Positions 25,441 to 37,465 of a stretch of DNA of 64,000 bases are shown here, in pieces; positions within the stretch are counted from its first letter, which is position 1, and each line of letters starts with the position of its first letter. The DNA is from an uncultured Sphingomonas sp. (GTDB lineage Bacteria; Pseudomonadota; Alphaproteobacteria; Sphingomonadales; Sphingomonadaceae), in contig CBINJP010000020.1 of assembly GCA_966251045.1 (NCBI GenBank), forward strand, positions 388 through 64,387, in the 5' to 3' direction. Both the position numbers and the translations under genes were made by a program. Under the pieces are notes generated by a model that was not told the DNA's origin, made no database searches, and worked only from the letters and a program-made list of their open reading frames with translations.

Positions 25441-26382
25441 ATGTTGAGGATCATCGCGACGGTGTTGGCGGCTTCGCTCCTCTGGGCGATCCCTGCCAGC
25501 GCGCAACCGAAGATGGAAATCGACTATCGGCGCATCGCCAATTGTCAGGCTTATCGCGATTTCGTCAAAGCCTATGGCTCGCCTGCGGAACTGGCCGCAG
25601 GGCTGGCTCAGAAACAGCGTGAATATTGTATTCCCGCGCGCCCCCGGCCTGATCCGATCGCCCGCGAGTGGCGGCAGATCGGCGATTGCAGGTCTCTGGA
25701 AGCATTCGCCGCGCGCTATGGCAGGCTTCGCTATTACAGAAGCAGGATTCCGGCCAAGCGCAGCCAATATTGCAAGCCGTCGCCGCCCCCCAGTCCCGCG
25801 CCGCGCGCTCCGTCGCCCGGCGCCTATCTCTCCGGGTGGGACATGCTCGACCTCTATCGCGACAATTATTTCTGCTACAAATATGAGTCGGGAAATAGCT
25901 GTTCGGACTATGAGGAGCTTTACAGCTTCAACGACGGCCGGCTCACGCTGCGCAAATATCTGCTCTTCCCCGTGCCGGCCAGCAAGGTGCCGCTATGGGC
26001 GACGCGCAGGGAGCCCAATATGCGGCTCACGCTCTTCCAGACCCTGACGCCGCGTGCCGACGGGCTGTGCTGGGACCAATCCGCGCGTGTGGCCGCGGCA
26101 TCCTTCGCCGAGGGCTCGGTCTATACCGCCAATCATTCCTATATCCGGCCCTTCACCGGCCCCGCGCTTGGTGATCTGCGCGGCATGCTGAGCCAGATCG
26201 CCCGGCAGAACAGCACGAGGCTGATCTGTTCGCGCTATCGCAGGGTCTCGGGATCGGTGATCGCTGAGGATGCATTCGACGGCGACGAACAATATGCCTT
26301 TGGCGACCGGATCGTGCTGATCCCGCGCGGGGAATATCAGCCGGTTCTGCGGCTCACCACCGACGGCTATGGCTGGAAATAG
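25441..26382 (+). CDS. Secreted cysteine-rich hypothetical protein with two N-terminal ~35-aa repeats
   Basis: Signal peptide MLRIIATVLAASLLWAIPASA. Internal repeat YRRIANCQAYRDFVKAYG...YC / WRQIGDCRSLEAFAARYG...YC, then a Pro-rich linker and a ~190-aa C-terminal domain. I recognise no family. It has many A/T-ending and AGG/AGA codons. Confidence 0.6.
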   Translation: MLRIIATVLAASLLWAIPASAQPKMEIDYRRIANCQAYRDFVKAYGSPAELAAGLAQKQREYCIPARPRPDPIAREWRQIGDCRSLEAFAARYGRLRYYRSRIPAKRSQYCKPSPPPSPAPRAPSPGAYLSGWDMLDLYRDNYFCYKYESGNSCSDYEELYSFNDGRLTLRKYLLFPVPASKVPLWATRREPNMRLTLFQTLTPRADGLCWDQSARVAAASFAEGSVYTANHSYIRPFTGPALGDLRGMLSQIARQNSTRLICSRYRRVSGSVIAEDAFDGDEQYAFGDRIVLIPRGEYQPVLRLTTDGYGWK

Positions 26383-26397: not shown

Positions 26398-27831
26398 TCA
26401 GTTGCAATTGCTCCAGGTTTCCGACGGACCGTTTTCGGATCGCATGACGAGGCTCGCGCCATCGCGCGACGGCTCGTAGCGGTAGATCTTGCCACCCTCG
26501 CGTCCCACCACGGTCCCCGTTTCCCGATCGCGATCGATGATTTCCGCCCTGAACGGGGCCATGCCTTCCACGCGCACAACAAGGGTTCCGCCCTCCACCG
26601 CGACATTGCGGGCGACCTCGCACCGCGGATCGGTGGCATGGCGCCAGCGCCCCTCGACGCTTGGCGCATTCGCGACTTTTGGCGTGGGTGTGGGCGCGGG
26701 CGTCGGTTTGGCCTTCCGCTGCGGGACAGGTGTCTCGATCGCCGCATTCTCCAGCACGACCTCGTTATTCGTGAGCTCGAACGTGGGGACGGGTTCGGTG
26801 CCCCACCGCACCCAGACGATCGCCGCCGCCGCCGCTGCCATCACAAGCAGGCCGGCCGCGATGATCGACAGCGTCAGTCTCCGCCACCGCGGCGTATAGG
26901 TCGGCCAAGGCTCGCCACCACGATCGATCGGGCACGGATCTTTCTCGTCGGAGACGTACCCGGGCGGCTCCGATCTGGGCGCAGCGCCCGGGTCGAGCGT
27001 CAGCCTGTCGGCCCACGCCTCGAGGTCGCTGCCGCGCTTCGCGATGTCCGGCTCGAGCCCATCGACGATCGCGGCGATCAGCCGCTCGCCACGTCCGTTG
27101 GGGAGGTCGATCCGTCCACGAAGGATGTCCGCCATCGCCGCCGAGGCCCCGCGCAGGTCCGCGAGGCGGTCGCGGAAGTCGGGCGGCGCCTCGCCAACGA
27201 TGGTCCGGAACAGCGTCGCGGCCAGCCCGTACAGGTCGGTCCACGGTCCGAGCAGGGCGCGGCGCGATGCGTCCCAGAGTTCAGGCGCGGCGAAGCCGAT
27301 GCGGGCAAGTTCGCGATTGTCGGGCCGGAACGATGCGGTGGAGCGGATATCGATACCGCATCCGATCGGCGAAGCGCCGCTTTCCGTCATCTCGATCATC
27401 TCGGGGTGGACGTCGAGATGCAGCACCTGCCGGCGGTGCATCGCCGCCAGCTCCCTCGCCGCGTCGCGTGCGGTCGCGAGGAGCGCGAGCGGCTCCATCG
27501 GCGGCATTTGATCGAGTGTCGCGAGAGGCCTGGGCGAGACGGTCCACAGGATGCCGTCCTCGGAGCGGATCGCGTCCGTCCCGCCCGGGCGCCGCGTGCA
27601 CGCCCCGGCCATGCCTGTGGAAAGCGCGCGATAGGCGTCGGACGCCTTGGCCGGGATGCCCGCGGCGGGTATCGCCATTCCGTCGGGTCGCAACGGCCCG
27701 GGCAGGAAGGCCCAGGCGAGGTTCCGGGGTTCCTGCCCCTCGATTTCGTAGATCTGCCATTGCGGCGTGATCCGCCACAGGGACGAAAGCCGACCCAACT
27801 CGGCGGGCGGAGTGGGCATGTCCGGGGTCAT
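26398..27831 (-). CDS. Membrane-anchored Hanks-type kinase-like protein (degenerate motifs) with a small Cys-bracketed periplasmic domain
   Basis: ATG at 27831. Has an HRDxKPxN-like loop HLDVHPEMI (27394-27420), an APE-like AAPELW, DLYGLAATLF, GEAPPDF and C-lobe LEPDIAKRGSDLEAWADRL. No GxGxxG is seen. One TM helix (LSIIAAGLLVMAAAAAAIVWV), a Pro/Thr linker and an ~85-aa C-terminal domain follow. Confidence 0.6.
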   Translation of the reverse strand: MTPDMPTPPAELGRLSSLWRITPQWQIYEIEGQEPRNLAWAFLPGPLRPDGMAIPAAGIPAKASDAYRALSTGMAGACTRRPGGTDAIRSEDGILWTVSPRPLATLDQMPPMEPLALLATARDAARELAAMHRRQVLHLDVHPEMIEMTESGASPIGCGIDIRSTASFRPDNRELARIGFAAPELWDASRRALLGPWTDLYGLAATLFRTIVGEAPPDFRDRLADLRGASAAMADILRGRIDLPNGRGERLIAAIVDGLEPDIAKRGSDLEAWADRLTLDPGAAPRSEPPGYVSDEKDPCPIDRGGEPWPTYTPRWRRLTLSIIAAGLLVMAAAAAAIVWVRWGTEPVPTFELTNNEVVLENAAIETPVPQRKAKPTPAPTPTPKVANAPSVEGRWRHATDPRCEVARNVAVEGGTLVVRVEGMAPFRAEIIDRDRETGTVVGREGGKIYRYEPSRDGASLVMRSENGPSETWSNCN

Positions 27832-27862
27832 CGCGGGCAGGCCCTGTAGCGGCTGCGGCGCC

Positions 27863-28189
27863 TCATTTGCGCTCCGCCTTGTCCGCGTCCATCTCGTCGC
27901 GTTCGAAATGGATGCCCTCGTCATCGACCCGCAGATAGGGTTCCACGCGCGCATCCAGCCCATAGAGGCGAACCACGTCGCTCACGTTCGAGACGGGGCC
28001 GTCGCCGGTTTGCTGCGGAACCAGATCGTGCGAGCCGGCGCCAGGGCGCCAGAGGGTATCATAGGGGATGAGCGCGAATCCGATCATCGCGATGCTCGCC
28101 GCCACCGCGGCAGTAACGGGCCAGCGCATTCCCGTCTGCTCCTGGCGGGGCCCCGGGGTCTTGCGTTTCTGGATCCTCTGGAGAGCCAT
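27863..28189 (-). CDS. Small single-pass membrane protein (hypothetical)
   Basis: 108-aa ORF with ATG at 28189. Has a basic N-terminus and one TM helix (WPVTAAVAASIAMIGFALI). It is packed 9 nt after the PBP-like gene and 31 nt before the kinase-like gene. Confidence 0.5.
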   Translation of the reverse strand: MALQRIQKRKTPGPRQEQTGMRWPVTAAVAASIAMIGFALIPYDTLWRPGAGSHDLVPQQTGDGPVSNVSDVVRLYGLDARVEPYLRVDDEGIHFERDEMDADKAERK

Positions 28190-28198
28190 GGCGCGTTC

Positions 28199-30574
28199 CT
28201 AGTTTCCGGGCGCCGGCGCCCGGCAGGGCGTCGTCATCCATCGCAGATAGGCCGAATCGGGAGCGGTCAGCAGTTCGGCGGCGAAGGCGAGCGCGTCGGT
28301 GGTCCGGCGCTGCAGGTTGATGACCAGCACTTTCAGCCCGCAGATTTGCGAGGGCATGGCGGGCAGCGCGCCCGTGCTGGTCCGCACCGCCATCAGCACC
28401 AGGATATGCCCCTGTTCCTTCGCGGGCTGATCGACGTCGGCGGTACCGGTCTTGGCGAAGAAAAAGACACTGCCCTCCACGCCCTGGGGCTGCGCGAGCA
28501 GCTTCCATAACTGTTTGGCGGTGCCCTTCTGGACCACGTTCGACATGGCATCGCGAATCTCGCGCCAGGCCTCCGCATGCATTGCGACGGTATCGGGGGC
28601 GACGTCGCCCTTGGCGGGCGTGAGCCTGGGGCTGATCCCGCGGCCGGAAAGGATGCGCGCATAGGCCTGACCCAGATTGGCGGTACTCCACAGGCTCCGG
28701 TTTCCGCCGATCACGCTCAGGTAGAAATCGATAAAGTCATTGTCCCGCAGCCCCATCATCAGATTGAGCCGCGGCAGTTCGAATGCATTCGACCCGAGCG
28801 GCTGATTGTCCGCGTCGCGCCACAGATGAGGCGAGCAATGGCTGGTGGTCCCATCCCATCCAAGGTCGGGCGCGCCCGGCCGGATGCCATAGGGAATCAC
28901 GCAGCCGAACCGCCAGAGATTCGCCGCCCAGCTTCTTTCGGACGAAAAGCTCTGGCCGGTCCGCTCATCATGCTCGACGCCCTTCTTGGCGAGCACCAGC
29001 GCATATTCGTTGTTGGAGAAAGTGAGGAAGGCATTGAAATCGACCTTCCCGTCGCCGCGATGCCCCGGGGCGTTTTCGATGCCCTGCTTGTCACCCAGCA
29101 TCAGTTGATGCCCATCGACATCGTGAAAGACAGGACGGTAGGGAATGACGAGCTTCAGCAGGTCGGGATAGCGATCGGTCACGGCCGCCGCGAACGGCAC
29201 CTTCGCGGCGGAGCCGATCGTCAGCCCCCGGAAATTCATGTTGGTCCGCAGCCAGTTGAGCCGCGTGCTATCCTCGCGATCGTCCATCGCGAGCTGGTTG
29301 ACCTCGGTGGGGAAGGTCGCCGCGGCGGCGATCTCGCCCGTCAGCCCGTCCATCATCAGTGCCGCGCCGCGATACGAGAAGCGAGGGGGCGATCCGGGCG
29401 CGTTGTCGGCGGTCATCCGCACCGCCAGCCGGCGTTGCAGATCGAGATGCATCCGCCCAACGATCGACGATTCGAAATCGCCGCCCTCGATTCCCGATTG
29501 CTCGAACCATTGCGACACGTCGCGCAGGCTGGGCTCGCGGATCCTCCGGCCAGCCGAGAGTTCGGAAATCGACCCCGGCGTCTCGGCGAGCTGCAGCGTA
29601 CGCTTGCGCCCGCCCTGACCTTCGATCGTCAGGAACTGATCGGGGCGGATCAGCCAGTAACGGACATTGTCATAGGCCGGCTTGGCCTTCCCGGCCTCCC
29701 CCTTCGCGACGAGGCGGCCATCGATATAGATCTGTACCGTGCCGAGCCGCGACGGAATCTCCACCAGCAGCGCCCGGCCGAGCGGCACCAGCGCGATCGC
29801 GGTGGGCTGGAAGGGCGAACCCGGCACGCGCGATTCGAGTGCGAGCACGACGCGCGATGCCTCGCCCCCGTCGAACTCGCCCGCGAAGAGCTGATCGACC
29901 GGGAATTCGGCTTTGGCGCGCCCGCGCGCAAACCTGAAGACGGCGCGCTTCCCGCCGACTTCGGAAAGAACCAGCATCGGCTGGGCGGGGTCATAGCCTT
30001 TCGCCTTGCCCGCGGATTCGCCGCGATAGTTGACGACGCCTTCCCATATCTTTCGCGGCCCGCCCGCCGCGATCAGCACATGCGCGGTGGGCTGCAGGCC
30101 AGCCACACCATTGTCCTCAAGCTGCCAGCGGTTGATCTGCCGCATGTCGAGATCGAGATAGCTGCGGCTCGCATAGGTCATCAGCCGCTTCTCGCACGGC
30201 CCCCGGGGATCCGCGACGAACCAGGGCAGGAAGCGCTGGCGCTCCCACAAGGTCCGGCAATCGCCCCCGGCCTTCAGCACGCGCGCGATCGCGTCCTTGT
30301 CCCACTGGACCCGGATCAGCGGCGGCTGGCCGGGACGCTCGACCATCGTCCGCTTGAACAGGCCTTCGTGCGCCATCTTGTCCACTGCCGCGCGATACCC
30401 GATCTCGGCCGAGAGCTGGCGCGAGCCCGAATTGCCCGCCGGCCAGGGCGGCGAGGCGAGGACCAGCAGCGTTAGCAGCGCGATGCTGAGCGCGATCAGC
30501 ACCTTCTCGGCGCTGACTCGCGGCCACTTGCGCTTGACCTGCGCGGGGGCGTCGCGGCGCGCGAGTTTAGCCAT
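28199..30574 (-). CDS. Divergent class B penicillin-binding-protein-like transpeptidase with a large unknown N-terminal ectodomain
   Basis: ATG at 30574 (MAKLARRD...; the track start at 30610 is a TTG). One TM helix. All three PBP active-site motifs are present with normal spacing: SAAK (29201-29212), SNN (29009-29017) and KTG (28445-28453). The pre-SxxK motif RGAALMMDGLTGEIAAAATFP resembles the conserved bPBP block. Confidence 0.7.
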   Translation of the reverse strand: MAKLARRDAPAQVKRKWPRVSAEKVLIALSIALLTLLVLASPPWPAGNSGSRQLSAEIGYRAAVDKMAHEGLFKRTMVERPGQPPLIRVQWDKDAIARVLKAGGDCRTLWERQRFLPWFVADPRGPCEKRLMTYASRSYLDLDMRQINRWQLEDNGVAGLQPTAHVLIAAGGPRKIWEGVVNYRGESAGKAKGYDPAQPMLVLSEVGGKRAVFRFARGRAKAEFPVDQLFAGEFDGGEASRVVLALESRVPGSPFQPTAIALVPLGRALLVEIPSRLGTVQIYIDGRLVAKGEAGKAKPAYDNVRYWLIRPDQFLTIEGQGGRKRTLQLAETPGSISELSAGRRIREPSLRDVSQWFEQSGIEGGDFESSIVGRMHLDLQRRLAVRMTADNAPGSPPRFSYRGAALMMDGLTGEIAAAATFPTEVNQLAMDDREDSTRLNWLRTNMNFRGLTIGSAAKVPFAAAVTDRYPDLLKLVIPYRPVFHDVDGHQLMLGDKQGIENAPGHRGDGKVDFNAFLTFSNNEYALVLAKKGVEHDERTGQSFSSERSWAANLWRFGCVIPYGIRPGAPDLGWDGTTSHCSPHLWRDADNQPLGSNAFELPRLNLMMGLRDNDFIDFYLSVIGGNRSLWSTANLGQAYARILSGRGISPRLTPAKGDVAPDTVAMHAEAWREIRDAMSNVVQKGTAKQLWKLLAQPQGVEGSVFFFAKTGTADVDQPAKEQGHILVLMAVRTSTGALPAMPSQICGLKVLVINLQRRTTDALAFAAELLTAPDSAYLRWMTTPCRAPAPGN
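29201..29212 (-). other. SxxK (SAAK) putative acyl-enzyme serine motif of the PBP-like protein
   Basis: The reverse complement of 29201-29212 reads TCC GCC GCG AAG (S-A-A-K), within LTIGSAAKVPF. Confidence 0.6.
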
Positions 30575-33140
30575 TGCCCGGCGCCTCCCCGGTTGGCCGT
30601 CCGCAGACAAAGGGCAGCGCCGTCAGCAGCAGCACCGCCATCGCCTCGGCCAGATCGCCGCCCGAGGTCACCGCGAGCAGATAGATGTTCCGCCCGGTGA
30701 ACGGGACCCAGTTCAGATTGGCGAGCACCATATAGGCCGCGGCCCAGAAAAAGGTGATTCGCGCCGCGACCCCGGCGATGCGCGGCCAGTCGCAGGCGGT
30801 ATCGTCCCCGGCTTCGGCATCATCGCGCGGCCTCAGCGCGAGCATCCCCGCCAGGATCACCGCCAGCACCGCCAGCGCACCCAGGCGGCCCCAGGGCCAG
30901 ATGATGTGAACCGCGGCGAGATTGTCCGAATATTGATATTTGCGCAGCGATTGCTGGATGTTCGACTGGGCGAGATATCCATGGCCGATCATCTCGCGGG
31001 TGAGGGGGCCGAGGCTGGTGGTCTGGTCGAGCGATTCGAAGGCGTGGGTGGTGCCGATCTGTTCGACGCGCGAAGGCCAGAGATAGGCGAGCATGCGAAT
31101 GTCGTTGCGATCCCACTCGGAAGTGGTGGCCAAATGCTCGTTGAGCTTCTGCTGGGGTGAGGGAATCTCGCCGCTGAGCGCGATCCCCAGCGCGAACAAG
31201 GCGACCAGCGTGGGCGCCATGGCGAGGGGCATGAGCCACGGCCACCGCTTGACGATCCCGCCAAGCCCTTTCGCGTCCCGAAATCCGAACCAGGCGATCG
31301 CGACCGCGAGCGGTATGCCGTAGACGAGCATCGAACCGAAATCATGGGTCAGCCACGGAACCACGCCATAGGCGGCGAGGAAGAGGACGAGCATCAGTCC
31401 GGTCGAAAGCCCGCGTTTGCGCAGACGCTGCGTACCGTCGAGGAGCAGCGCGAACCCCAGGATCATCGCCGGCACGTAGATCAGGCTCAGCGGCACGCCG
31501 AAGGGCCGCTCGCTGAAGCGCGATCCCAGCAGATAGGCGCCGATCAGCAGCAGGAACAACCGGAAGGCGACCATGGCGACGATGATCGCGATGCCGAGCG
31601 TATAGGTCCGCGGCAGGCGGTCGATCCACGCGAGCAAGGGCCGGACGCGCTGCCAGATACCCTTCTCGCGACGCGGGACCTTCCCGCCGGGGGCTTGCAG
31701 CAGGGCGCCCAGCAACGCGCAGGCGAGCGCCAGCGGGCTCTCGCGTCCCGGCCATACCAACCGTGCCGTCACCGCGACGCCCGTCATGTAAAAGAGGGCC
31801 GCGGGGAGCCCGCCCCAGGCGACCCCGCCCAGCGCGATCGCGATCGCGGTAAAGCCGGCGAGCAGGAGCAATAGGAAAGCGCTCAACATCGGCCGCAGAT
31901 CCGCATCGGCCTGCCGGAAGGCGAGCACGATCAGCATGGGCAGGCAAAGGAAGGATGCCAGTGGATCCCAGAGCACCTCGGTCAGCCCCTGGCGCGAATC
32001 ATAATATAATCCAGCCACGCCAATCAGCAGCCGTAGCGCGAGCAGCCATTGCACCAGCGGCACGAGTACGCGCTCGGGCGTCGGCTTGCGCCACGCCGCG
32101 GCGCAGAGTGCATGCATCGCCAGTGCGCAGAATATCACGAAGAAGCCGGAAAAGACCGGCAGGAACACCTTGCTCGCGTGAAGCGACAACCTGGCGTCGG
32201 CCGCCTCGACGCCGCTGGGCCACGCGAAATCGGTGTCGGTCTTGGCGCAGAGCGACGAGGGTTCGGCCACCGGGCCCAGCCATTTGGCTTCGGCCACGGG
32301 ATTGGCGCCGCCCAGCCCGAGTCCGGTGAAGACGAGATTGTCCGGATCGAGGAATTCCGGCTCCTGTCCGTCGCCGCCCGCCGCGGGCGAAAGGCGCAGG
32401 CGCGGGAGCTTGCACGAGCCGGCATCGGCGACCAGTGGCTCATTCAGGTTGAGCTCGATGACCGGCGAATCGCCGCCCCGCAGATAGAGCGTGAAGGAGC
32501 GCCGCGGGGCCCATTTGCCGTCGAGGTCGATTCTCGAAACGGTGAGCTCGATCGGCTCGCCCGGGATCAACTCGCGTGTCTCGGGCGCACCGGGCTGGAG
32601 CTCGGTATCGCCGATCTTCACGCCCATCCCCGGAATTTCCTGGTCGGACTGCGGCGCGAAGCTCTGGAGCACGATCTCGGCCTTCATCACCGCATCGCTG
32701 TCGGCGGGCCGAGACGGGGCCTTCGCGCGCACCGTCACAAAGGCGCGCGGATCGGCTGGCATCGAAATGCGTGAAAGGCTCTGATCGGCATAGGGCGGTA
32801 CCACCAGGTCCGCCGAATCGCGGCTGTCGCCGACGATCAGGAAGGGCTGGAACTCCGGCGCGGCCGTGTCCTGACGCTTTGCCTCAGTCCCGTCCTCTGC
32901 CCTGGTCGCTTCCGTGGCGACGACGACCGACTGGGGTATCCGCAACTGCATGATCCGGACGGTCAACTGGTCGCCCTCGCCGCCGGCGAGCGCGGCGACG
33001 AAAGCGGCAAAGGGAATGGCGATCAGCAGGAAGGTGCGGAGCAGGCGAAAAACGCCCTTTTCGCCCAGTGACACCCGGTCGAACCATAGCAGCAGGCCGA
33101 ACGCGACGTTCAATCCGGAGAAGATGAGGGTCTCGAACAA
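30567..33140 (-). CDS. Giant SEDS (FtsW/RodA/SpoVE)-like polytopic membrane protein with a ~320-aa N-terminal extension
   Basis: TTG start at 33140, preceded by AAGGA 6 nt upstream. The C-terminal ~520 aa has about 10 hydrophobic helices. SEDS-like blocks are HDFGSMLVYGI (cf. PDLGTAL), GHGYLAQSN (cf. GxGxGxG), QYSDNLAAV (cf. HTDFIFA) and VPFTGRNIYLLAVTSGGDLAEA (cf. PxTGxxLPFxSYGGSS). The N-terminus has two TM helices and a ~270-aa soluble insert. Confidence 0.6.
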   Translation of the reverse strand: MFETLIFSGLNVAFGLLLWFDRVSLGEKGVFRLLRTFLLIAIPFAAFVAALAGGEGDQLTVRIMQLRIPQSVVVATEATRAEDGTEAKRQDTAAPEFQPFLIVGDSRDSADLVVPPYADQSLSRISMPADPRAFVTVRAKAPSRPADSDAVMKAEIVLQSFAPQSDQEIPGMGVKIGDTELQPGAPETRELIPGEPIELTVSRIDLDGKWAPRRSFTLYLRGGDSPVIELNLNEPLVADAGSCKLPRLRLSPAAGGDGQEPEFLDPDNLVFTGLGLGGANPVAEAKWLGPVAEPSSLCAKTDTDFAWPSGVEAADARLSLHASKVFLPVFSGFFVIFCALAMHALCAAAWRKPTPERVLVPLVQWLLALRLLIGVAGLYYDSRQGLTEVLWDPLASFLCLPMLIVLAFRQADADLRPMLSAFLLLLLAGFTAIAIALGGVAWGGLPAALFYMTGVAVTARLVWPGRESPLALACALLGALLQAPGGKVPRREKGIWQRVRPLLAWIDRLPRTYTLGIAIIVAMVAFRLFLLLIGAYLLGSRFSERPFGVPLSLIYVPAMILGFALLLDGTQRLRKRGLSTGLMLVLFLAAYGVVPWLTHDFGSMLVYGIPLAVAIAWFGFRDAKGLGGIVKRWPWLMPLAMAPTLVALFALGIALSGEIPSPQQKLNEHLATTSEWDRNDIRMLAYLWPSRVEQIGTTHAFESLDQTTSLGPLTREMIGHGYLAQSNIQQSLRKYQYSDNLAAVHIIWPWGRLGALAVLAVILAGMLALRPRDDAEAGDDTACDWPRIAGVAARITFFWAAAYMVLANLNWVPFTGRNIYLLAVTSGGDLAEAMAVLLLTALPFVCGRPTGEAPGNG

Positions 33141-33150
33141 GCGCCGTCCT

Positions 33151-33753
33151 TCAGGAAACGACGTTGCTTGAGTAGAGCCAGAAATAGGCCCTGCGCGTGA
33201 CGAAGAGCATCGCGATCGAAATGAGAGCGAGCACGAACAGCGCCGGCCACAACAGCGTGAAGAGCCATCCGAACCAGTTCGGCATCACGTCGAGCACGGG
33301 TGACTTCGCCGCGAGCCAGTCCGCAAAGCCGCAATCGCCGAAATCCTTCGTGACGAGCGTCCGGACCACCTCGCGATGCGCGCCCCATCCCTCGAGCCCG
33401 CAGACATGGGTGACCATCCATTCGCTTTCGCGCTCGGGAAGCGGGACCATCCCGGGGCCGCTCGAATCCAGCGCTCCCGAGCGGCGTACATTGTTCGCCT
33501 CTTCGGCAAGCAGCGTCCGCATGCGCAGCCCGAAACCCGCATCCAGCCTGGTCGCGGCCGCAATCGCGGCTGGCGGCTTCGGCCCCCTGAGATCCTGGTT
33601 GAACGCGGTATTCTGGCTGTCGTTGAAGGTCGGGTTCGTGAACACGCCCAGCACCCAGAGCGACACGAAGAACAGCACCCCCAAGGCCCCGGTCAGCGCC
33701 GCCCACCCCCAGCGGAGCTGGTCGCGAAACAGAAAGGCAAGGATCACCTTCAT
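33151..33753 (-). CDS. Two-TM membrane protein (hypothetical)
   Basis: 200-aa ORF with ATG at 33753. TM helices lie near both ends (WAALTGALGVLFFVSLWVLGVF; WLFTLLWPALFVLALISIAMLFV), flanking a ~120-aa loop with two Cys. It sits 15 nt after the GTPase gene and 10 nt before the SEDS-like gene. Confidence 0.5.
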   Translation of the reverse strand: MKVILAFLFRDQLRWGWAALTGALGVLFFVSLWVLGVFTNPTFNDSQNTAFNQDLRGPKPPAAIAAATRLDAGFGLRMRTLLAEEANNVRRSGALDSSGPGMVPLPERESEWMVTHVCGLEGWGAHREVVRTLVTKDFGDCGFADWLAAKSPVLDVMPNWFGWLFTLLWPALFVLALISIAMLFVTRRAYFWLYSSNVVS

Positions 33754-33768
33754 GGATGCCGCTCCACT

Positions 33769-35256
33769 TCAGAATTCCGGGATAACGCCGGCATGGGCAA
33801 TCCCCGCGAGCCGCCTGCGCACATTGGCTGCCCAGGAATAATGCTGCCGGAACACCCAGTTGCGGCTTCCCAGTTTCCGGGCGAGCGAGATCCACTGCAG
33901 TACCTCGACCACGCCGTGCGGCGGATGCTTGCGGTAGTGCTCGCGGCTCAGCAGATCGCTGTCCGGCGCCCCGAAATATTCGGGCTGATGCCCGTAAAAT
34001 GCAGTCGCATAATCGAATTTCGAGAGCGGAAAAACCGAGATCAGCTGAGCATGCAGATCGCGCCGCGCCTGATGGATCGTATCCCACGGATTTTCGAGCG
34101 GCAGGTTGCCGGCGCGGTCCGCCAGCGCCCGCAACACGCCGGTCTCCGGACGCTCGCGAAGCTCCGCGTTGCGCAGGCGCAGCATCGCGTCATTCTCGTC
34201 ATTGTAGAAGAGCGACAGCGCCCGGTCCGCCTTGGTCAAGGCGAAGAAGGTCGGGCAATCGAACCCGTTCGGGCCGCCGATGGGGCCGCGATTGGTGACA
34301 TAGTGGCTCTTCACCACCGCCGGCGTGACGCGCTTGAAAGCCTCGGCATCGGCAGGGTCGATATTCTCGTGGCGCATATAGCCGAGCACGCTCGCGACGC
34401 GGAATACGCCCGCCGCGAACTCCTCGAGCTGGTCGGTGCCCCTGCGGAAGTCCTTGGCCCATGCCAGCAGATGCGGCTTGGCCTGATTCACCTGCCTTGC
34501 GGCTGCGCGAAGCGCGGCGGGACTGGGAGCCTCGCCCTCCGGCATGCTCAGCTTGGCGAGGCCGGCCTTGGCGTCGGCCAGCACCTCCTTGTCGTCCGCC
34601 GGCATCAACTCTCCGAAGATCATCAGATCGGTCGGGAGCGCGACGATCATCGCCTTGGCGTAATCCATCGCGCCGAGCAGCATCCGCAGTCTGCTATAGT
34701 CGGCGCTGATCAGGTCGTGAGTCTGGTCGCCCGGCATGTCGATCAGCACGAACGTCTTCGGCTTGCCATGGACATAATGGAACTGGAGGTCGCTGGTGCT
34801 CGGCAACGTCGCCGATTCGCCGTCCTCCGCCGTGACCCGCTTGAATTCGGGATCGCTCGGCATGCTGAAGGGCGCCTTAAGCAGCTGCTCCTTCATCCGG
34901 TGCAGCAGCCAGGTCTTGCCGGCGCCGCCGAAGCCGACGAACAGAATCGCGAACAGGCCCTTCGCCTTGATCTCCTTCAACTCGTCGAAGAAAATCTCTT
35001 CCTGGGTCTTTGGCCGAATGGGAATGGTGCCGCCTCGCGCCGCGCCGCCGCCCGGCGCCATGGGCGGAGGAGCCGGGGTCGGGCCGGGGCCGGGACCGGG
35101 CACGGGCAGCGCGACGACCCGTTGAGTCGTCGGTTCGGGGGTCTTGTCGTCCTGCTCTTCCACCTTTTCCCCCGCGCCGAATATCTCGCAAAGGCTGCAT
35201 CGACCCGTTTCAGGATCGATGGGTTCCCGGTGGACACCGCAGACCTCGCTGGCCAC
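33769..35256 (-). CDS. P-loop GTPase (TRAFAC-type motifs) with N-terminal Cys/His cluster and Pro-rich linker
   Basis: GTG start at 35256-35254 overlaps the upstream TAG by 1 nt. Motifs: G1 GFGGAGKT (34912-34935), G3 DMPG (34729-34740) and G4 TKAD (34225-34236). The N-terminus has C-x2-H...C-x2-C (CGVHREPIDPETGRCSLC). There are about 165 aa between G3 and G4. Confidence 0.65.
   Translation of the reverse strand: MASEVCGVHREPIDPETGRCSLCEIFGAGEKVEEQDDKTPEPTTQRVVALPVPGPGPGPTPAPPPMAPGGGAARGGTIPIRPKTQEEIFFDELKEIKAKGLFAILFVGFGGAGKTWLLHRMKEQLLKAPFSMPSDPEFKRVTAEDGESATLPSTSDLQFHYVHGKPKTFVLIDMPGDQTHDLISADYSRLRMLLGAMDYAKAMIVALPTDLMIFGELMPADDKEVLADAKAGLAKLSMPEGEAPSPAALRAAARQVNQAKPHLLAWAKDFRRGTDQLEEFAAGVFRVASVLGYMRHENIDPADAEAFKRVTPAVVKSHYVTNRGPIGGPNGFDCPTFFALTKADRALSLFYNDENDAMLRLRNAELRERPETGVLRALADRAGNLPLENPWDTIHQARRDLHAQLISVFPLSKFDYATAFYGHQPEYFGAPDSDLLSREHYRKHPPHGVVEVLQWISLARKLGSRNWVFRQHYSWAANVRRRLAGIAHAGVIPEF
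34912..34935 (-). other. Walker A / G1 motif of the GTPase
   Basis: The reverse complement reads GGC TTC GGC GGC GCC GGC AAG ACC (G-F-G-G-A-G-K-T). Confidence 0.7.
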
Positions 35257-36701
35257 TAACGCGCCTTGAGCAGCATCATCGCGAAGAAGAGCGATTCAAC
35301 CACCGGCCAATGCCGATGCCCGCACCCCTCCGAATAATATTCACGCTGCAGGACAGTGGTCGACAACGCTTCCAGAACCCCCCGAGACTTGGTTGAGATA
35401 ATCTTCAACAAATCCTTGCTTGTCAAAACAAGAAGGTCGCGCCGGAATGCCGGAGGCCATGATTTGATGGTCGCCTTGAGCTTCTCGAACGATTCGTTCC
35501 GGGGTTCGAGCGTGTCGATCGATTTTCGAATCAACGAGATGATGTTTCCGCGCAGATCCGGATCGGTCGCGGTCTTGCCGGACCGCGTCGCTTCGAGCGC
35601 ATATCCCACCAATTCGGACAGGTCGCCGGCATGGACGTTCCCGTCCATCTGCTTGCCGTAGCAGGCCAGCGCGAGCGCGGCGAAATCGGGCGAGCCACTG
35701 CCCATTGCCTTCAGCACGGCGCTCAGCGGCGCGTCCATCCCCTGTTCGTGAAGCGCCGCGACATATTCGGGCTGCACGCTGCGTACCGCGCCCGCCAATG
35801 CAGGCACCCCGGCATCCCGGAAAGTACCGAGCAGCTCGAGCATGGTCAGGGGGGGGAGCGCGCTGCTGGCCATGCGCAGCGCATCCGCCGCCACGCGCTC
35901 GGCCGGCAGCGCGCCATAGCCCTGGCGCCATTTCAGTGCGGACACTGCCGGCGCGAAATTATTCTTCCCGCCGATATGCTGCTTGGCCGCCTCCCAGGCG
36001 AGCCAGGCCGGCGGCGGCGGGGCGGCAGGCTTCTCGCCGTCCGATTTCATGGAATAGGGCAACAGACCCGGCGGCGGTGCCGCGACGGGCTCGGTAGCGA
36101 CCACCAGCTGGCTGTCCCGAAGCAGATCGAGCCCTCCGCGCGGCACCAGCTGCGCCGAGGTCGCCCAGCCGGCTACTCGCGGCCGTTCCTCGACGGGCCA
36201 AACCGACCGAAGCGCTTCGATCAGGATGGCATCGCGGTCCTCGTCACGCTCGACCAGGATCAGGCGATCGGCCCAGGCCAGGCCCAGATCCGGCCAGTCC
36301 AACTGCTCCTGCTCCGGAACGGCCACCTCTACGGGATCGCGCCCGAAATTGCCGGTCCCGTCGGGCTCCTTGATCTCGCCCAGCACCAGTTCGGTGCGAT
36401 GGCCGAGCGCCGCCAGACTCGCGCTGTCGATCATTACGCCATTCAGAAAGGCTTCTTCGCCCAGCGCGCCGCGACCGCGATACCACGCGCGGAACACGAC
36501 CGCGCCCTCGCCCTCGGGCAGCGCCACGCACGCGGCGAAGCTCTTCTCATCCGTTCTGGACCATTCCATCAGCACCATCGCCAGGTCGGTGGCGCGGGTG
36601 AAGGCGATGGGCGAGGATTGGGCAAGCACGCGATAATTGCGCCCCTGCGATTGCGGCCCGATCACGAAGGTCGGCAGCGTGAGCCGCCCGCCTCCAGTCA
36701 T
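35256..36701 (-). CDS. Hypothetical 481-aa soluble protein, candidate GTPase partner
   Basis: ATG at 36701 forms an ATGA overlap with the upstream gene stop (36698-36700). I recognise no motif. The N-terminal ~120 aa alternate beta/alpha-like segments. There is a Pro-rich linker (PVAAPPPGLLP...KPAAPPPPAW). The C-terminal half is helical, with visibly lower GC. Confidence 0.55.
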   Translation of the reverse strand: MTGGGRLTLPTFVIGPQSQGRNYRVLAQSSPIAFTRATDLAMVLMEWSRTDEKSFAACVALPEGEGAVVFRAWYRGRGALGEEAFLNGVMIDSASLAALGHRTELVLGEIKEPDGTGNFGRDPVEVAVPEQEQLDWPDLGLAWADRLILVERDEDRDAILIEALRSVWPVEERPRVAGWATSAQLVPRGGLDLLRDSQLVVATEPVAAPPPGLLPYSMKSDGEKPAAPPPPAWLAWEAAKQHIGGKNNFAPAVSALKWRQGYGALPAERVAADALRMASSALPPLTMLELLGTFRDAGVPALAGAVRSVQPEYVAALHEQGMDAPLSAVLKAMGSGSPDFAALALACYGKQMDGNVHAGDLSELVGYALEATRSGKTATDPDLRGNIISLIRKSIDTLEPRNESFEKLKATIKSWPPAFRRDLLVLTSKDLLKIISTKSRGVLEALSTTVLQREYYSEGCGHRHWPVVESLFFAMMLLKAR

Positions 36702-37465
36702 CCGCCCGAACCTCTCCGCGTTGGCGCTGGCCCGCAATCGGTGCTCGCGTTGGGCCGTACCTTCGCCAAGTTTTGCTCAACCCTGCAAAGTTCGTTCGTA
36801 TCGCGATACTTGTTTGTCGCCGCGCAACCCACTTTGAAGCCCTCAGAAGCGCGAATCCGCGCTATTTCCGCATCGATATTCCACCTCGCCTGGCAGATTT
36901 TCAGGTCGGCGTCGGACACTGCCTTACGTGCTTCATTGCCCAAGGCCAGTTCGCGCTCCTGCCCGGCGCTGTTTTGTGAGAAATAAAGGGCTGCGCCACC
37001 CAATAGTAACGCGAGCGGTAGCGCGATCAAAATAAACAGAAGGAATTGCCTCACTTGGACAGTCCGGGCCCACCGGCTTGTACCATCTTCGCCGGGCGGC
37101 TTGCCCTCGACCGGCGGATCGGAGTCCAGCGGTGCTTCGGCGGTCACGGGCTCGTCCGGCGGTATGGAAGGGAGCGGCGGGTCCGGGACTTCGCTCTTCG
37201 GTGGGTCCTTCGGGCCGAGGGTCTTCGGCAACTTTGCGATCACCGCATCGGCCACCGCCTGCGCGTCGGGCCAGGCGATTCCCTTCAGACTTGCCGTCAT
37301 CGACGATTTAATCTGCGCGTCGATCGATTCCTTGAAGGCCTTGTCCAGCCCTGTCTGACGCCCCGCCGCGACTTCCCTCGCGATGAATTCAAGCACGAAC
37401 TCCGCCATTTGCTGCTGGAGGGTCGCGAAGGCGTCCGGTTCTTCTTGTTCGTCGGTGGCGCTCAT
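36698..37465 (-). CDS. Bitopic membrane protein: acidic cytoplasmic N-terminus, Pro-rich linker, four-Cys C-terminal domain (hypothetical)
   Basis: 255-aa ORF with ATG at 37465, the first gene of the operon. Has a TM helix FLLFILIALPLALLLGGAALYF and a C-terminal segment with 4 Cys (KICQARW...GCAATNKYRDTNELCRVEQ...STDCGP). Confidence 0.55.
   Translation of the reverse strand: MSATDEQEEPDAFATLQQQMAEFVLEFIAREVAAGRQTGLDKAFKESIDAQIKSSMTASLKGIAWPDAQAVADAVIAKLPKTLGPKDPPKSEVPDPPLPSIPPDEPVTAEAPLDSDPPVEGKPPGEDGTSRWARTVQVRQFLLFILIALPLALLLGGAALYFSQNSAGQERELALGNEARKAVSDADLKICQARWNIDAEIARIRASEGFKVGCAATNKYRDTNELCRVEQNLAKVRPNASTDCGPAPTRRGSGG

Follow-up and report, generated by a model that had tools for sequence, protein, structure and literature searches.

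In Actinobacteria, pknA and pknB follow rodA and pbpA, and the PpkA/PknB-type kinases (structures 5hnv and 1mru) combine a cytoplasmic kinase fold, one transmembrane (TM) helix and an extracytoplasmic domain. To our knowledge, bacterial pseudokinases have barely been studied, with functional data essentially confined to EssB/YukC and MviN. Formally, a pseudokinase is a kinase fold without at least one of the VAIK Lys, the HRD Asp and the DFG Asp (10.1101/2025.01.12.632604), and a 2025 census of bacterial Ser/Thr kinases distinguished seven pseudokinase families (10.1101/2025.01.12.632604; PMC12599244), with EssB/YukC and MviN as precedents for scaffolding by a membrane pseudokinase (PMC12599244). 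Here, we describe a membrane protein with a kinase fold from an uncultured Sphingomonas sp., encoded at 26398-27831 on the minus strand of a 64,000-nucleotide stretch of assembly GCA_966251045.1 (the window, by which we mean the whole stretch that was analysed), and we posit, with a probability of roughly 0.6, that it is a non-catalytic transmembrane pseudokinase adaptor of an accessory envelope machine.

The PpkA/PknB-type kinases are the best matches to this protein in both sequence and structure, with E-values of 2.7e-19 for PpkA and 1.4e-13 for PknB (19-sequence family profile against PDB sequences) and a structural Z of ~20. They share its layout, clade-specific motifs correspond between them (VAIKEYxP with LAWAFLP, and GPWTDIY), and the pseudokinase gene comes after genes for a putatively SEDS-like protein and a penicillin-binding-protein-like (PBP-like) protein, much as pknA/pknB come after rodA/pbpA. 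In contrast to these kinases, however, the window protein has no ATP/Mg-binding residues and a predicted lipocalin-like barrel replaces PASTA; compared with the PknB cluster of Actinobacteria, its operon has no FHA or PP2C genes and carries a Zn-ribbon GTPase instead, and the host is an alphaproteobacterial soil/rhizosphere organism.

Among the described pseudokinases, that of MviN/MurJ in M. tuberculosis (ActPs3, 3uqc) is likewise membrane-tethered, does not bind ATP and is tied to cell-wall synthesis, acting as a regulatory scaffold with an extracytoplasmic domain of ligand-binding type (PMC12599244); ActPs3, though, has lost HRD and ~40 residues of its activation loop, whereas the window protein has a full activation segment and keeps HxD. 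EssB/YukC of type VIIb secretion, in which a pseudokinase domain with degraded G-loop and catalytic motifs is joined through one TM helix to an extracellular domain, acts by recruiting other subunits of its membrane machine (PMC12599244, PMC9600267), but differs in its attenuated activation loop, its Firmicutes hosts and its secretion context, and no sequence relationship between it and the window protein was detected. The most similar degeneration is that of the proteobacterial DLHK family (O'Boyle et al. 2025), which reads AVLT / HRDLRPAS / GFG in P. aeruginosa and so retains the HxD Asp without a β3 Lys; as compared by published description (PMC12599244), DLHK has no TM helix and is fused to helicase/DNA2 domains, whereas the window protein has one TM helix and a barrel, and its nearest active relatives are PpkA-like. 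In the GLW family, GLW replaces HRD (PMC12599244), where the window protein keeps HLD; CP1 proteins are soluble and occur with COG3899, whereas the window protein is membrane-bound; and DYD and ActPs1/2 are families of Actinobacteria and Firmicutes. Because none of the seven families fits by the published criteria, we rate the window protein, on those published descriptions, as a new family within a known class, the bacterial membrane pseudokinases. It would be a further membrane-anchored family, marked by family-wide loss of the ATP-binding residues and by the new invariants Trp25, Asp161 and Arg163.

Fold and catalytic motifs of the window protein

The gene and the parts of its product lie in the window as follows.

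26398-27831, minus strand: pseudokinase coding sequence, 477 aa, bitopic, stop codon at 26398-26400 (open reading frame and translation)
26977-27804, minus strand: residues 10-285, Hanks-type kinase fold, predicted cytoplasmic (AlphaFold2 (AF2), Foldseek, VIA, hhalign)
27748-27771, minus strand: residues 21-28, ITPQWQIY, β1-β2 turn at the place of GxGxxG (model strands 15-21 and 25-30)
27700-27723, minus strand: residues 37-44, NLAWAFLP, β3, with Ala41 at the Lys position (hhalign)
27394-27420, minus strand: residues 138-146, HLDVHPEMI, remnant of the catalytic loop (profile alignments, family table)
27343-27363, minus strand: residues 157-163, GCGIDIR, DFG region (HMMER and hhalign)
26803-26889, minus strand: residues 315-343, single TM helix (model helix; hydropathy peak at 323-341)
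26659-26802, minus strand: residues 344-391, Pro/Thr-rich linker (sequence; model confidence, pLDDT, <50 at 345-383)
26401-26658, minus strand: residues 392-477, predicted periplasmic 86-aa eight-stranded barrel bracketed by Cys404 and Cys476 (AF2 model)

The minus-strand frame is open over 26398-27963, and ATG 27831 is a sensible start because it aligns with Met1 of 18 of 18 relatives and lies 31 nt past the stop of the upstream 108-aa gene (w7). RWRR stands directly before the TM helix and therefore, by the positive-inside rule, suggests an N-in topology. An initial annotation, made from the letters of the sequence alone, had picked out a kinase-like C-lobe, one TM helix, a Pro/Thr-rich linker and a terminal domain of ~85 aa between two Cys. 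All of these are present, as are the motifs it quoted for the C-lobe: HLDVHPEMI (138-146), AAPELW (181-186), DLYGLAATLF (199-208), GEAPPDF (213-219) and LEPDIAKRGSDLEAWADRL (259-277).

As a single sequence, the pseudokinase scores 10.6 bits (E 0.36) against Pfam PF00069 Pkinase, below the gathering threshold of 31.7 bits, and 17 of 19 relatives match the same model at E ≤ 0.01 (best 3.3e-9). NCBIfam models that include kinase domains score better than Pfam Pkinase, namely LanL (lanthionine synthetase, 2.5e-8) and MAD6 (4e-6); the helicase-like PLuB model, at E 0.0013, comes behind the lanthionine-synthetase kinase domain. With phmmer, PpkA was matched among PDB sequences at E 2e-5, and an exhaustive search of 1.84 billion representatives gave 5123 matches at E ≤ 1e-3, nearly all of them ordinary kinases aligned to residues ~104-300 and only ~20 of them full-length relatives (24-40% identity); it was through this search that the family surfaced, a word-index homologue search having returned the window protein's own 99% cluster and ordinary kinases only. 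At the profile level, hhalign aligned the family to 15 active proteobacterial kinases over 241 columns with 99.9% probability (E 8e-36), and the APE Glu184, the αF Asp199 and the subdomain XI Arg266, all invariant in 19 sequences, fall in the same columns as in the active kinases.

Structurally, an AF2 model of the full protein, built on a 36-sequence alignment, has a mean pLDDT of 85, mostly >90 in residues 10-285, and shows a five-stranded N-lobe with αC and a helical C-lobe. Foldseek returned kinases only (PknB, PknI, PpkA, IRAK4; E ~2e-9), and VIA-align superposed 260 residues on PpkA 5hnv with Z 20.6 and a root-mean-square deviation of 3.8 Å; since this alignment spans model residues 3-280, both kinase lobes are present. 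The domain thus belongs, at the level of fold, to the Hanks-type kinase superfamily. The kinase likeness that had been noticed in the C-lobe extends to a complete bilobal kinase, and a fold unlike a kinase, the outcome that the initial annotation had set against its own reading, did not appear.

Functionally, little of the canonical active site is left, and the HMMER and hhalign alignments agree on where its residues should be. The Gly-rich loop, which the initial annotation had failed to find, is indeed gone: the β1-β2 turn reads T-P-Q-W, residues 14-31 hold no Gly, and relatives carry at most one Gly in this region, with a nearly invariant Trp25 that, if the register of the alignment is right, would occupy the place of the third Gly of GxGxxG. 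In β3, the VAIKEYxP of active relatives is matched by L-A-W-A-F-L-P; the position of the Lys, Ala41 here, is A, R, V, L, E or Q across the family and never K, and the invariant Pro44 is an inheritance from the parent clade. No acidic residue is conserved in αC, and the kinase domain has two Lys, K62 and K265, neither of them conserved nor near β3; K62 alone lies in the N-lobe, in agreement with the single Lys counted there before.

The catalytic loop, HRDIKPxNI in active kinases, reads HLDVHPEMI, with Arg replaced by Leu (non-RD), Lys by His142 and Asn by Met145, and with Asp140 kept; hhalign confirms the earlier assignment of the His and Met. Within the family, His138 is invariant, position 140 holds Asp in 17 of the 19 members, with Glu in the other two, the Lys position varies freely (H/Q/E/N/S/C), and the Asn is retained in P0019, P0022, P0026 and P0131 only (HLDxHPxNI). 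The DFG motif aligns in both profile alignments to G157-C158-G159, so the G-I-D that had been taken for it was placed two residues too far; the DFG Asp occurs in 0 of the 19-member clade, and Asp161 (DFG+4) and Arg163 (DFG+6) are invariant in the 19-sequence family alignment. A four-residue shift of the DFG Asp to Asp161 was also considered and rejected: the sister clade (D-F-A-x-D-x-R) has a true DFG-type Asp as well as Asp161, which rules out Asp161 as a relocated metal ligand.

With the VAIK Lys and the DFG Asp both absent, the protein falls within the sequence definition of a pseudokinase given above. An ordinary kinase with all its catalytic residues conserved, the other outcome named beforehand as fatal to the idea, is not what the alignments returned, the HxD Asp140 being the only one of the three defining residues that is kept. 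The initial annotation had left the choice between a pseudokinase and an atypical kinase; the motif losses support that pairing, and the sequence evidence favours the pseudokinase half of it. Because the G-loop, the β3 Lys, the catalytic-loop Lys and Asn and the DFG Asp are lost, no canonical ATP-Mg binding or phosphotransfer is expected, and the protein probably has no canonical kinase activity. The activation segment (160-184), by contrast with that of ActPs3, is full-length and confidently modelled (pLDDT ~95), and together with Trp25, Asp161 and Arg163 it would fit a rigid, constitutively ordered surface.

Family, periplasmic domain and selection

Evolutionarily, the family stands by itself. 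In a tree of 101 kinase domains (quick maximum likelihood, midpoint root, branch support from the Shimodaira-Hasegawa-like approximate likelihood-ratio test (SH-aLRT) without bootstraps), a branch with 98% SH-aLRT support separates 28 representatives from every DFG-bearing kinase, and the window protein sits among these 28 in a 19-row subclade (95% support). The 19 full-length sequences of the family alignment, 24-31% identical, have eight invariant residues, and Arg177 and Asp187 are nearly so. In the sister subclade (P0045, P0051, P0052, P0055 and P0084), β3 reads V-R-L-R-E-Y-x-P and the DFG region L-x-D-F-A-x-D-x-R; intermediate states are thus kept there, with Arg at the β3 position and D-F-A at DFG. 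By these alignments, the degeneracy is a trait of the family and not chance decay. One sister-clade gene, P0052 (L011 495-2276), encodes a pseudokinase with the same short barrel, Arg at β3 and D-F-A at DFG; it lies directly upstream of a TerC/TerD/ATP-grasp_Ter/PRTase set, on a contig that begins just before it.

The two named members of the family, both from Sphingomonas metagenome-assembled genomes (MAGs), are annotated as 'hypothetical protein'. A search of 36 genomes of the same genus and 24 of the same order did not find the pseudokinase gene, and a pattern scan of species-representative genomes gave one family member (L002, a Caulobacterales MAG) among its best 80 loci, the others being essentially ordinary kinases. 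Metagenomes of rhizosphere and soil from several studies contain near-identical DNA. In contigs of four metagenomes, strain variants of the coding sequence number 16 positions, 11 synonymous and 5 nonsynonymous, with 0 indels; the resulting pN/pS of ~0.16, from what is a small sample, reflects purifying selection, and the gene is therefore maintained. In one soil-metagenome strain, codon 143 (window 27405) carries Pro143Ser, within the nearly invariant HLDVHP loop.

The periplasmic domain (392-477) is predicted, both alone and in the full-length model, as an up-and-down barrel of eight antiparallel strands (pLDDT 93.5). The initial annotation had held that this domain is not a PASTA repeat, which agrees with the all-β barrel of the model and with the lack of any Pfam PASTA match in the pseudokinase at E ≤ 10. 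Another 12 proteins of the clade carry the barrel, and in the 13 homologous barrels Gly394 and C404 are nearly invariant and C476 is invariant; since C404 and C476 are the only Cys beyond the TM helix, a Cys404-Cys476 disulfide is likely. Pfam gave nothing meaningful on the 13 barrel sequences, and Foldseek gave weak lipocalin/CRABP/FABP matches (E ~0.04, probability 0.9-1.0).

With VIA, the top fold matches of the barrel are those appended to serine β-lactamase/PBP-fold enzymes, with 71-84 residues aligned: 2qmi (Pab87, the C-terminal lipocalin-like domain of a Pyrococcus PBP homologue; Z 8.4), 5hal ('putative beta-lactamase'; Z 7.5) and 1ei5 (the D-aminopeptidase DAP; Z 7.1), then Lip3 and Ulm16 (8fek; Z 6.7). 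Lipocalins (HP1028, Z 7.2), PliC, potempin, staphostatin and NlpE score nearly as high. ESM-Atlas rows matched by the barrel include the Beta-lactamase/DUF3471 (TM 0.62) and NlpE families; a separate ESM-Atlas feature search of the ectodomain scored ≤0.84, which gives leads only. Because all of these Z values sit in the range that the tool states as common for unrelated barrels, we limit the claim to the fold class, a modelled calycin/lipocalin-like eight-stranded barrel, and treat kinship with PBP-appended, DUF3471-type barrels, given Z values within that background range, as a lead. The likeness extends to the position of the gene near that of a PBP-like protein, with the difference that the barrel here is on a separate polypeptide.

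From protein to protein, what follows the kinase fold changes: the window protein, P0011 and P0030 end in a short barrel, the proteins of L002 and L004 in a longer, Cys-bracketed form, P0023 and P0028 in TonB_C (Pfam E 7.7e-5), and P0019 and P0022 in extra TM helices. As the sequences have it, the ectodomain is modular and exchangeable among operon subtypes, and this swappable ectodomain, along with a sister clade in intermediate states, would count among the distinctive features of the family.

The operon and its neighbours

Eight genes lie in the same orientation here, with the pseudokinase gene at the end. Upstream of it, and convergent with it, the window carries the following.

27863-28189, minus strand: 108-aa bitopic protein w7; orthologues in the same position in L002, L004 and L009
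28199-30610, minus strand: PBP-like protein; SxxK, SxN and KTG invariant in five orthologues
30567-33140, minus strand: 857-aa polytopic protein, plausibly SEDS-like; orthologues in five loci (in L009 by tblastn)
33151-33753, minus strand: 200-aa protein (open reading frame); orthologues in the same order in L002, L004, L006 and L007
33769-35256, minus strand: Zn-ribbon P-loop GTPase (open reading frame); orthologues and weak P-loop Pfam matches
35256-36737, minus strand: 493-aa soluble protein (open reading frame); orthologues in the same order in L002, L004, L006 and L007
36698-37465, minus strand: 255-aa bitopic protein (open reading frame); orthologues in the same order in L002, L004, L006 and L007
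33151-37465, minus strand: the four upstream operon genes as a block
25441-26382, plus strand: convergent 313-aa secreted protein with two copies of C..[LY]..F...YG, a motif shared with gene 9 of L002 and L004

Orthology of the block was checked by BLAST in five loci (L002; L004; L006; L007; and L009, a Sphingomonas MAG), and the contig of P0011 shows the same gene sizes and order as a sixth independent locus. The order is bitopic protein, ~480-aa soluble protein, Zn-ribbon GTPase, ~200-aa protein, ~830-aa polytopic protein, PBP-like protein, ~106-aa bitopic protein and pseudokinase. In L002, L006 and L007, stop and start codons overlap around the pseudokinase gene (PBP-like, w7 and pseudokinase genes), and the small bitopic gene of the w7 type occurs only where the tail of the pseudokinase is a barrel. 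In a second operon subtype, that of L006 (3178-5664) and L007 (3098-5473), the GTPase and the ~200-aa protein are fused into one protein of 791-828 aa, which argues that the two interact. On sequence grounds, this is likely an accessory operon in which every gene is unannotated and which combines divergent cell-wall-synthase-like proteins with a GTPase, housekeeping RodA and FtsW being encoded elsewhere in the same genome; the operon is rare, and the pseudokinase is an entry point to it.

The PBP-like protein has S467/K470, S532/N534 and K720-T721-G722 invariant in five orthologues, matches Pfam Transpeptidase at E 0.004 (below the cut-off) and gives weak profile matches to PBP3/PBP2 in the PDB (E 0.4-1). 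The polytopic protein has no match in Pfam or by profile against PDB sequences; hhalign against genuine RodA/FtsW (E 3.6e-4, probability 37%, 237 columns) places two of its invariant residues, Asp600 and Asp739, on the QPDLG and HTDFIF motifs, and a SEDS-like identity is plausible. In L009 (5400-6900), where the genes for the PBP-like protein, the small bitopic protein and the pseudokinase are intact, the SEDS-like gene is present as short fragments only (tblastn, residues 350-413 and 662-829), through either pseudogenisation or an assembly artefact. Co-folding of PBP-like residues 58-803, w7 residues 48-108 and the barrel scored 0.00 (mark 0.32), which speaks neither for nor against binding.

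The convergent gene at 25441-26382 encodes a protein in which a Pro-rich linker follows the two motif copies. The same motif opens a ninth co-directional gene, for a β-helix-like secreted protein, in L002 (11527-12714) and L004 (11644-12801), and has 0 matches in 1.26 Mb of unrelated loci read in six frames. The window gene is probably the counterpart of gene 9 in the related operons, and its product may belong to the system as a variable ninth component, which would make it a candidate for the partner of the barrel in the periplasm. Beside the operon lies what is presumably a Tc-toxin gene.

The proposed role and its alternatives

Mechanistically, the pseudokinase would descend from PpkA/PknB-like proteobacterial Hanks kinases, with the whole bilobal scaffold kept. 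Its rigid pseudokinase domain, with the ordered activation segment and D161-x-R163, may offer a docking surface to cytoplasmic operon partners; the single TM helix and the flexible Pro/Thr linker would join the kinase fold to the periplasmic barrel; and the ectodomain, which is exchanged between operon subtypes (barrel, TonB_C or extra TM helices), may bind a periplasmic ligand, a partner or an anchor. The translational coupling of their genes suggests that the PBP-like protein and the pseudokinase share one complex. We give a role in scaffolding within the operon's machine slightly better than even odds. The fixed place of the gene after the SEDS-like/PBP-like pair and the GTPase would make non-catalytic, kinase-fold signalling testable in the envelope of Gram-negative soil bacteria.

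Several observations weigh against this adaptor role. Asp140 is kept in 17 of 19 members and the cleft-adjacent Asp161 and Arg163 are invariant, a pattern that also fits a non-canonical nucleotide-binding or catalytic site such as has been proposed for DLHK, DYD, WNK and CASK (PMC12599244); four relatives retain the catalytic-loop Asn, and members of subtype B have Arg at β3. In addition, the SEDS and PBP identities of the neighbours have weak support, an hhalign E of 3.6e-4 with 37% probability for the one and a Pfam E of 0.004 for the other.

A bolder form of the adaptor reading, which we hold as tentative and think rather less likely than not to be right in full, makes the pseudokinase the transmembrane coupling subunit of an undescribed envelope machine: a cytoplasmic Zn-ribbon GTPase switch would control the divergent SEDS-like/PBP-like pair, as a non-catalytic counterpart, in Alphaproteobacteria, of PknB-RodA-PbpA control, with the barrel reading a wall- or partner-derived signal (e.g., the secreted Cys-motif protein). 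The protein would then represent an eighth bacterial pseudokinase family and the first to come with a SEDS-like/PBP-like pair.

Differing from the adaptor reading in biological purpose and overlapping with it in molecular role, one alternative is that the operon, instead of regulating wall synthesis in a housekeeping manner, is a mobile, GTPase-centred conflict system (defence or competition), with the pseudokinase as its sensor or adaptor in the membrane and effector roles at the envelope for the SEDS-like and PBP-like proteins. Ecologically, the patchy distribution described above would suit such a system, as would the transposases that flank L007 and L009, and Kaur et al. 2020 (PMC7159879) described systems built on Zn-ribbon GTPases that also contain TM components and kinase domains, along with related MoxR-vWA conflict systems in which the catalytic residues of most kinase domains are disrupted. 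However, the GTPase matches none of the Pfam DO-GTPase models at E ≤ 10, the GAP1, GASH and FNIII components were not recognised, and PADLOC gave generic kinase-domain matches for the pseudokinase (PD-T4-6, 30 bits) and none for the other eight proteins; we regard a conflict system as unlikely.

The main rival, also unlikely, is an atypical active enzyme or nucleotide switch, in which His138-x-Asp140, Asp161/Arg163 and basic residues would form a non-canonical, perhaps metal-independent site that phosphorylates an operon partner or a small molecule, or binds or hydrolyses NTP. Such a site would draw on the conserved residues named above as points against the adaptor role, including the Asn of the relatives with HLDxHPxNI, and AlphaFold3-based proposals of ATP binding exist for DLHK, which keeps HxD and has GFG for DFG, and for DYD (PMC12599244). 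From a catalytic perspective, though, the G-loop, the β3 Lys, the αC Glu, the catalytic-loop Lys and Asn and the DFG Asp are missing together, and neither Lys of the kinase domain is conserved or close to β3; moreover, Asp140 gives way to Glu in two members, the catalytic-loop Lys position varies freely, and proteins of the sister clade have Asp161 beside a true DFG-type Asp. That this is a former kinase gene, now decaying and without function, as the 10.6-bit Pkinase score and the many lost catalytic residues might suggest, is very improbable in view of its intact frame, a pN/pS of 0.16 without indels across four metagenomes, the conservation at <40% identity of both the degenerate motifs and the new invariants W25, D161 and R163, the high-confidence AF2 model and the conserved operon position.

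Returning to the adaptor reading, MviN regulation requires FhaA as well as phosphorylation by PknB. Here, the operon proteins have no Pfam match for FHA, and no Pkinase match above the Pfam cut-off was found in this genome, so a PknB-to-MviN style of trans-phosphorylation is not obviously available. The genome's only other kinase-like gene, on another contig (G000 contig C39, L013 116-2979), encodes a 623-aa protein that scores 29.5 bits, below the Pkinase cut-off; this kinase is atypical, with GxGxxG, AxK and D-x-K-P-x-N intact, and its gene overlaps the stop of a gene that, by eye, resembles a PP2C-type phosphatase.

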